A stretch of 64,000 nt of DNA, taken from the NCBI RefSeq assembly GCF_009931435.1, contig NZ_CP043414.1, one strand, 5' to 3'. Origin of the DNA: Escherichia coli (GTDB taxonomy: Bacteria > Pseudomonadota > Gammaproteobacteria > Enterobacterales > Enterobacteriaceae). Positions 31,119 to 31,217 of this stretch are shown here, piece by piece (within the stretch, counting starts at the first letter, position 1; each line of letters opens with the position of its first letter). A program made the position numbers and the translations under genes. The notes under the pieces were generated by a model. It saw only the letters and a list, made by a program, of their open reading frames with translations, had not been told where the DNA came from and did not search any database.

Positions 31119-31217
31119 TTAGTGCTCAGTATTAAAAGTGTGCGTATGTGCGCCTGCGTTATGGTTATATGCACTCACACTATGGGTATGTGCACCTTGT
31201 AAATGGCTTTCTTTCAT
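31119..31217 (-). CDS. Possible 32-aa His-rich micro-ORF ([32 protein letters not shown])
   Basis: ATG 7 nt after gpM-like stop with aagga RBS; GAHTH motifs and ~21/23-nt identity to tail-fiber repeat DNA; could be non-coding repeat. Confidence 0.25.
   Translation of the reverse strand: MKESHLQGAHTHSVSAYNHNAGAHTHTFNTEH

Follow-up and report, generated by a model that had tools for sequence, protein, structure and literature searches.

A candidate accessory gene of fibre-type His-x-His heptads between the terminase and head-completion genes of an ESSI-2-like phage

Introduction

Phage tail fibres bind iron through His-x-His (HxH) motifs. In the needle of T4 gp37, three chains each contribute one HxH motif to the binding of one Fe2+; seven iron ions are coordinated in this manner along the axis of the trimer, and the iron-binding histidines are essential (PMC11705849; PMC6957217). 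Fibre genes of this kind are also subject to rearrangement. As related in PMC3157838, citing Tetart 1996 and 1998, the adhesins of T-even phages are shuffled at conserved motifs and host-range duplications occur in T4 gp37.

A second class of system relevant here comprises the morons and other hot-spot cargo of phage genomes. Such genes are present or absent in otherwise collinear phages, alternate with other cargo at a fixed boundary and show a lower GC content, and morons carry a promoter and a terminator of their own. To our knowledge, HxH motifs are known only within large fibre and spike proteins.

The window analysed here is a stretch of 64,000 nt of Escherichia coli DNA, and its relevant region is an ESSI-2-like P2-type phage (Peduoviridae, Quadragintavirus). 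The host DNA beside it resembles that of E. coli, with a best identity of 98.6%. An original prediction, made from the letters of this DNA, pointed to a His-rich micro-ORF in the head module with DNA likeness to the tail-fibre gene, and proposed that it may be a metal-binding peptide, a recombination donor for fibre variation or a DNA-level site. We compared this locus with related prophages, phages and metagenome contigs, and with fibre and tail proteins.

Results

As predicted, a 32-codon open reading frame preceded by an AAGGA site occupies the junction of gpM and gpL, at exactly the expected coordinates, on the minus strand and with a gap of 6 nt after the gpM stop codon (Table 1). The gpM stop, TAA at 31226-31224, forms the left boundary of the variable slot described below; it is followed by CAACAA and then by the ATG of the micro-ORF. 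The AAGGA site is made up of the last codons of gpM and is unchanged in all micro-ORF alleles, and the gpL ATG lies ~98 nt downstream. GC content is 41% in the micro-ORF compared to 55-56% in gpM and gpL, and histidine accounts for 22% of the micro-ORF codons. A consensus scan found neither a sigma-70-like promoter on the coding strand nor a terminator flanking the micro-ORF. The encoded peptide contains three units, HTHSVSA, YNHNAGA and HTHTFNTEH, and exactly this protein is also found in a public protein library (P0061). At window positions 31215-31226 (minus strand), the arrangement TAA CAA CAA ATG places the micro-ORF ATG in the gpM frame, as it does in every E. coli allele.

Table 1. Coordinates of the micro-ORF, its neighbours and related features in the window and in other contigs.
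Feature	Location	Strand	Description
HxH micro-ORF	31119..31217	minus	32 aa + stop; ATG at 31217, TAA at 31121-31119
AAGGA Shine-Dalgarno-like sequence	31227..31231	minus	9 nt 5' of micro-ORF ATG; read from sequence
gpM, terminase small subunit, 234 aa	31224..31928	minus	gpM / PF05944 annotation in related records
gpL, head completion / adaptor protein, ATG start (MFSGKP...)	30568..31020	minus	PGAP annotation in relatives, PF05926, alignment
Structured RNA, ~100 nt	31018..31119	minus	helical core ~31101-31035, U-run, then gpL RBS and ATG
Structured RNA in relatives	L031:149-255; L018:14196-14297; L195:899-998
P0076 HxH micro-protein, singleton	L031:253-417		contig Logan SRR33598369_1704
Alternative slot ORF	L002:1718-1915; L195:711-902; L066/L067/L111:1210-1404		phrog_8618; 'L33' in GenBank
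Tail fibre gene, 535 aa	20543..22150	minus	PHROG tail fibre families; tip by phmmer vs PDB
Single GAHTHSVS-coding stretch matching micro-ORF 21/23	20862..20884	minus	within fibre gene

The prediction of a head-module micro-ORF built from fibre-type His-x-His repeats is borne out by comparison of related prophages, which shows it to be genuine and conserved in position. The ORF is kept at the same position and with the same termini in 11 DNA alleles of 99-249 nt (32-82 aa), all of which share the RBS, ATG, stop and frame. These alleles come from four complete E. coli genomes, the cultured phage ESSI2_ev129, four IMG/VR contigs and six metagenome contigs, and have lengths of 32, 33, 48, 53, 61, 68, 73, 78 and 82 aa, with two different alleles each at 32 and 78 aa. 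A protein database adds two more variants, of 47 and 33 aa.

Every micro-ORF opens with an invariant head of 8 residues (MKESHLQG), continues with an HxH array that varies and closes with an invariant tail (HTHTFNTE[HQ]). The array holds 3-10 units per allele with the consensus H-x-H-[ST]-[VLA]-[GS]-(G)-A, spaced by 7 or 8 residues. Every indel among the alleles is a multiple of 3, including a non-unit change of 3 nt (a 21- versus a 24-nt unit) and a partial duplication of 15 nt. Units of 21, 24 or 45 nt are gained and lost in frame, so that prophages with flanks at least 94-99% identical differ in carrying anything from 3 to 10 units, a pattern that slippage or unequal recombination would be expected to produce. 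Because the 53- and 61-aa alleles reside in prophages with flanks 99.4% identical to the window, unit number must change fast. The recurrence of identical alleles in independent sources argues against assembly noise as the origin of the length differences.

The micro-ORF is rare, being present in 4 of 5426 complete E. coli genomes. Scans of 100,044 GTDB species representatives, with the exact 5' end and with the degenerate pattern HSHSL[GS]G[AT]HTH, gave no matches either time, and scans of IMG/VR with a degenerate C-terminal pattern and with the clade-B unit pattern yielded nothing new. A shortened allele of 40 aa (P0002) lies at 3001-3123 of a rearranged contig (L025; Logan ERR3330526_71). 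There, gpA-region DNA is joined to the 3' end of N and to gpM, and the sequence breaks within the HxH repeat into DNA that matches window positions 16465-16260, outside the left end of the prophage. This contig is either the remains of a prophage in decay, with one end of a deletion falling within the repeat, or a chimera created during assembly.

Searches for protein families were then set beside direct comparisons with HxH-containing proteins. NCBIfam and PADLOC returned nothing for the micro-ORF, and PHROGs gave only weak fibre matches. In Pfam, the 78-aa allele shows nine sub-threshold PF03335 repeats (i-E 0.13-7.6, none at or below 0.001), and PF03335 (Phage_fiber repeat) also appears among the precomputed annotations for the 47-aa allele (P0001). 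The 61-aa allele searched against the PDB finds the T4 gp37 tip (2XGF) at E=0.5, which is a likeness at the level of the motif, whole-sequence homology to the tip not being significant. The two share G-x-H-x-H motifs flanked by small residues, but the micro-ORF is free-standing, is encoded in the head module and possesses neither collar nor head domains. Moreover, the needle-type HxH spacing of 9 and 14 residues in the gp37 tip is not found in the micro-ORF, where the spacing is 7 or 8 in all alleles.

The best relatives by phmmer are instead period-7 HxH arrays within proteins of 300-1400 aa (E=1e-10 to 1e-19). Fourteen proteins match the micro-ORF at E<=1e-10, and the top ones with HxH arrays are almost exclusively of period 7. 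Seven large phage tail proteins (P0007, P0009, P0010, P0011, P0012, P0017 and P0021) contain 9-41 uninterrupted HxH heptads with a period of exactly 7, as in the example AHTHSVGAHSHGLNSHTHSVG. Proteins with heptad arrays match tail or tail-fibre PHROGs, or Prophage_tail or Gp10_C in Pfam; some also match 'minor head protein' PHROGs, but their genomic context is Prophage_tail, so these matches lend no support to a role in the head. Sequence searches found no solved structure of an HxH heptad array.

With these arrays the micro-ORF shares tandem H-x-H-x4 heptads, the heptad register and the consensus (HTHSVGA HSHGLNS ...). In the large tail proteins the arrays are internal modules beside attachment or receptor-binding domains, whereas the micro-ORF is the array alone, 32-82 aa with termini of only 8-9 residues. 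Judged by these comparisons, the micro-ORF is a free-standing version of the fibre-type HxH heptad module with a variable number of repeats, and no copy of the resident gp37-type repeats.

The position of the micro-ORF is a slot that is usually empty. In 20 of the 24 complete E. coli genomes with this phage type, AGACTACCGC, with which the spacer begins, comes immediately after the gpM stop, and the 80 closest IMG/VR relatives divide into 71 with an empty slot, 4 with the HxH ORF, 3 with an unrelated ORF of 64-65 aa (phrog_8618) and 2 with something else. The right boundary, at which TAA is joined to AGACTACCGC, is the same in all three states of the slot (empty, HxH ORF, other ORF). An unrelated ORF of 63-65 aa fills the same slot in ESSI2_ev015, ev040 and ev239 and in three IMG/VR contigs; a Pfam search of the phrog_8618 slot ORF gave no significant match. 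Since this unrelated ORF occupies the same junction, the gpM-gpL boundary is a hot spot for cargo, and since cultured relatives exist without the micro-ORF, the micro-ORF is dispensable.

Like phage morons and other hot-spot cargo, the micro-ORF is present or absent in collinear phages, has alternative cargo and a fixed junction, and deviates in composition towards lower GC. Unlike morons, it shows in a consensus scan no promoter and terminator of its own for expression from the prophage. It presumably rides on the late head transcript, an arrangement that makes a fitness factor expressed in lysogeny unlikely.

An exhaustive phmmer search uncovered a second cassette in a divergent phage contig (L031), whose gpL is 58% identical to the window gpL in protein and 65% in DNA. 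This cassette encodes a 54-aa protein, MMNNKNNNVCTHNHAVGAHTHSLGGTHSHTPGVHTHSLGGTHTHTLGAHTHEQA (P0076), which has the same HxH spacing of 7/8 as the E. coli micro-ORFs but different termini, and which matched only itself when used as a query in a search for homologues. The L031 cassette likewise sits between gpM and gpL, but at the opposite end of the spacer, after the RNA element described below. It is inserted between the gpL RBS and the gpL ATG, takes that RBS for itself and places its stop codon 3 nt before the start of gpL. The insert is absent from all 63 IMG/VR relatives of the L031 lineage, including L113, whose gpL is 99% identical. A 9-mer, AACAACAAA, is found near the start of both cassettes and may mark an end that they share.

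Over 102-125 ungapped nt, the repeat DNA of L031 agrees with E. coli clade-B alleles at 78-80% of positions, and the cassette is thus better conserved than the flanking essential gpL (80% versus 65%). The first two positions of the 10-12 His codons are free of all 22-26 mismatches between the cassettes (hypergeometric P=0.004 and 0.002). Codon differences between the cassettes number 7 synonymous versus 10-13 non-synonymous, so that selection is not strongly purifying overall. The L031 cassette is homologous to that of the E. coli lineage and represents an independent insertion. Two RBS-linked placements in operon orientation, together with the His-specific conservation, constitute the best evidence here for production of the peptide and for the importance of its histidines.

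These observations bear on the alternative that the micro-ORF is a non-functional relic, a captured fragment of fibre-type repeat that persists as a neutral, coding-looking minisatellite and remains open because its unit is a multiple of three without stops. Its rarity and dispensability fit such an origin, as does the one shortened allele in a rearranged prophage remnant. The His codons of the micro-ORF are almost all CAT, and homogenisation of the repeat at the DNA level could therefore pass for conservation; one further frame of the unit runs through the array without a stop, which makes an open frame by itself weak evidence. Furthermore, the ratio of non-synonymous to synonymous change is not low overall, with 3 synonymous versus 8 non-synonymous codon differences between the two E. 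coli clades. A neutral repeat is nevertheless difficult to reconcile with a start codon, RBS and termini that are the same in 11 of 11 intact alleles, with non-unit indels of 3 and 15 nt that also preserve the frame, and with a second, independently placed cassette that is again found behind an RBS and tightly coupled to gpL. The conservation specific to His codons, seen between cassettes that differ at ~20% of positions, and the higher identity of the cassette relative to the adjacent essential gene point the same way. We consider the relic unlikely, although it retains appreciable weight.

Between the slot and gpL, and bounding the slot on its right, lies a structured RNA that is retained whatever the slot contains and recurs in ~140 relatives. 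When aligned, 25 diverse spacers fold into a single long, irregular hairpin with 20 base pairs, and compensatory changes are seen at 13 of these; 96.6% of cells pair, compared to 80.7% in column shuffles and at most 48% with slid partners. Frequent G-U pairs assign the structure to the strand of the mRNA. A covariance model reaches 104 bits in the window and detects exactly one copy per phage, and a search of Rfam found no match to the spacer RNA. In many lineages the element is followed by a U-run and then the gpL RBS, and cargo ORFs insert only at its edges. The element may serve as a partial terminator, as a site of processing or as a translational operator that fixes the ratio of head to downstream genes, and is possibly a new motif of the ESSI-2-like Peduoviridae, among phages of Escherichia, Cronobacter and Yersinia.

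Annotations of the gpL start differ (window 31021-31071, minus strand; also L018 and L026): ESSI2 records and metagenome calls use an upstream GTG (167 aa) and PGAP uses the ATG (150 aa). The upstream GTG falls inside the structured RNA. Three observations speak for the ATG: the RNA covaries, the L113 lineage has a stop in frame, and the insertion in L031 separates the element from gpL.

The proximity of this element raises the alternative of a regulatory upstream ORF, in which translation of the His-rich mini-ORF would act with the structured RNA to modulate gpL and downstream genes through His-tRNA-sensing attenuation or translational coupling. The high share of histidine codons would suit such a device, as would the conserved, terminator-like RNA and U-run immediately downstream and, in L031, the takeover of the gpL RBS by an ORF that stops just short of the gpL ATG. 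However, more than 90% of relatives lack the ORF and yet keep the RNA element, and the ORF is found 5' of the element in one lineage but 3' of it in the other. No alternative pairing between ORF and element was found, and the whole region folds in an ordinary way (z=-0.74). The His codons are spaced and not consecutive, and variation from 3 to 10 units is hard to square with a tuned attenuator. Regulation of this type is thus quite improbable. A his-leader attenuator, a terminator or a known RNA was separately rejected as an identity for the region, given the missing terminator near the ORF, the weak fold and the Rfam result.

The resident tail fibre supplies the remaining comparison. Its residues 322-535 form a T4 gp37-type receptor-binding tip (phmmer against PDB 2XGF, E=5.3e-81) with 7 HxH motifs, spaced by 9 or 14 residues in the needle strands. 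The gene is a mosaic of an N-terminal ~320 aa of P2/ESSI-2 type (phrog_8239) and a C-terminal 214 aa closely homologous to the tip of T4 gp37; among relatives there is also another type of tip, which has 6 HxH motifs instead of 7 and a different head-domain insert. Mosaicism and the existence of two tip types indicate swapping of tips between P2-like and T-even-like fibres.

The DNA likeness between micro-ORF and fibre that drew attention to the locus is real and narrow. The 23-mer CTCACACTATGGGTATGTGCACC of the micro-ORF matches fibre positions 20862-20884, 2 nt from where the original prediction had placed the match, with 2 mismatches that are both synonymous third positions. The local peptide GAHTHSVS is identical in the two proteins. 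The predicted GAHTHSVSG repeats of the fibre are indeed encoded twice (aa 423-431 and 473-481), but only the first copy matches at the DNA level. Shuffled sequences give an expectation of zero matches as good as that of the 23-mer, whereas random synonymous recoding of the micro-ORF with prophage codon usage reached at least 21/23 against the fibre in 3.45% of 2000 trials. Together with the synonymous nature of the mismatches, this rate makes the DNA match marginal beyond what the shared peptide entails.

Wider comparisons agree. By blastn, four micro-ORF alleles against five fibres give only matches of 8-20 nt, with no advantage for the cognate fibre. The best fibre match of the window-type ORF is the 20-nt core of the 23-mer, and clade-B ORFs match their own fibres over 11-15 nt and the non-cognate window fibre better (16/16). 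ORF DNA finds no match among phage fibre genes at E<0.01, and the 82-aa allele searched by blastn against 50,697 phage records matched solely the micro-ORF of ESSI2_ev129 itself, which speaks against a recent origin from a known fibre gene. No chimeric micro-ORF/fibre alleles were found. The shortened allele P0002 was considered as an ORF-fibre recombinant and discarded, for its breakpoint in the ORF joins host-side DNA in a rearranged prophage remnant.

The predicted polymorphism in repeat number is present in the micro-ORF, with its 3-10 units, but not in the fibre. Type-1 fibres have 7 HxH motifs in 3 of 3 cases, while their micro-ORFs have 3, 6 and 7 units; type-2 fibres have 6 in 4 of 4, with micro-ORFs of 9, 9 and 3 units in three genomes and none in the fourth. 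In protein sequence, 6 of 6 genomes pair a clade-A ORF (HTHSVS) with a type-1 fibre (HTHSVS) or a clade-B ORF (HTHTVG) with a type-2 fibre (H.HTVG). This pairing spans only two whole-phage clades and is inseparable from common descent.

Could the micro-ORF be a donor of HxH ('His-box') DNA with which the fibre gene undergoes gene conversion or changes its number of repeats, as originally suggested? The 21/23 match, slightly above the coding expectation (p=0.035), and the shared travel of ORF clade and fibre type favour the idea. Against it stand the shortness of the shared DNA (at most 20-23 nt), the lack of cognate advantage and of chimeras, and fibre HxH motifs whose number and sequence are constant within a type while ORFs range from 3 to 9 units. 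Furthermore, the ORF holds no specificity-determining segment to give, and as direct repeats ~10 kb apart, the micro-ORF and the fibre motif would by crossover delete essential tail and lysis genes. The T-even system resembles this locus in its short conserved motifs and its duplication and deletion of small segments; T-even exchanges stay within or between fibre genes and move specificity segments, whereas here the variable array lies outside the fibre gene and no exchange is detectable. With a DNA match confined to one motif and a constant fibre beside a varying micro-ORF, the donor reading is very improbable, and the alternative of a DNA-level site found no evidence in its favour.

Nor does the notion of a detached copy of the fibre repeat agree with a spacing of 7 or 8 residues in the micro-ORF versus 9 or 14 in the fibre, and with so short a stretch of shared DNA. 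The likeness to the resident fibre could well be a by-product of encoding the same 8-residue motif, an element of the overall explanation to which we would give an even chance.

Lastly, readthrough of the gpM stop, which would add a His-rich C-terminal tail to a fraction of the small terminase and for which the invariant in-frame junction of the E. coli alleles speaks, is the least credible alternative: no promoting context or structure was found, the L031 cassette has its own start, with the 100-nt RNA element lying between it and gpM, the ORF of 65 aa that can fill the slot instead is out of frame with gpM, and TAA is an efficient stop codon in E. coli.

Discussion

The explanation we prefer, and hold with middling confidence, is that the late head operon has in the micro-ORF a genuine, moron-like accessory gene that the phage can do without, and whose product would trimerise with metal in the manner of fibre HxH arrays. 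By analogy with the fibre needle, metal binding is the most plausible chemistry of the peptide, and a late-expressed peptide that forms a metal-bridged trimer is the most likely form that we infer for it.

The steps of such a mechanism can be outlined. The AAGGA site would direct translation of the micro-ORF from the late transcript. Three chains would then align, each triad of HxH motifs presenting six imidazoles to one divalent metal ion, as modelled on gp37, in whose homotrimer Fe2+ is bound octahedrally by six histidines. The outcome would be a metal-zipped trimeric mini-needle whose length follows the number of units or, more simply, a metal-sequestering peptide. This product would act late in infection as a non-essential accessory of assembly or of the virion. 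AlphaFold2 applied to three linked copies of the 82-aa allele, as a pseudo-trimer, gave a pLDDT of 33, and the 32-aa peptide has no obvious domain for attachment to the virion.

A bolder version of this explanation is tentative and, in our estimation, improbable as it stands, although worth stating. The micro-ORF might be a natural minimal 'metal-zipper', in which free-standing HxH heptads self-assemble with Fe2+ or Zn2+ to form a needle of three chains, its length dictated by a repeat number that evolves rapidly. Its role would lie in particle assembly, for instance in giving metal to the iron-loaded fibre and spike or nucleating them, or it would be a minor appendage of the virion. Capture would have taken place two or more times, at the edges of a hitherto undescribed structured RNA within the head operon of ESSI-2-like phages.

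The micro-ORF is rare and dispensable, and the idea that it donates variation to fibres is unsupported, which tempers its significance. It nonetheless pinpoints a hot spot for cargo and brought to light a covarying RNA element, absent from Rfam, that lies between the terminase and head-completion genes. A gene composed only of HxH motifs, with 3-10 units, would be the simplest system in which to study the choice of metal, trimerisation and the stability contributed by each unit, and would also show how phages load metal into their fibres. If each heptad binds a metal ion, the tail proteins with 9-41 heptads would be very metal-rich fibres.
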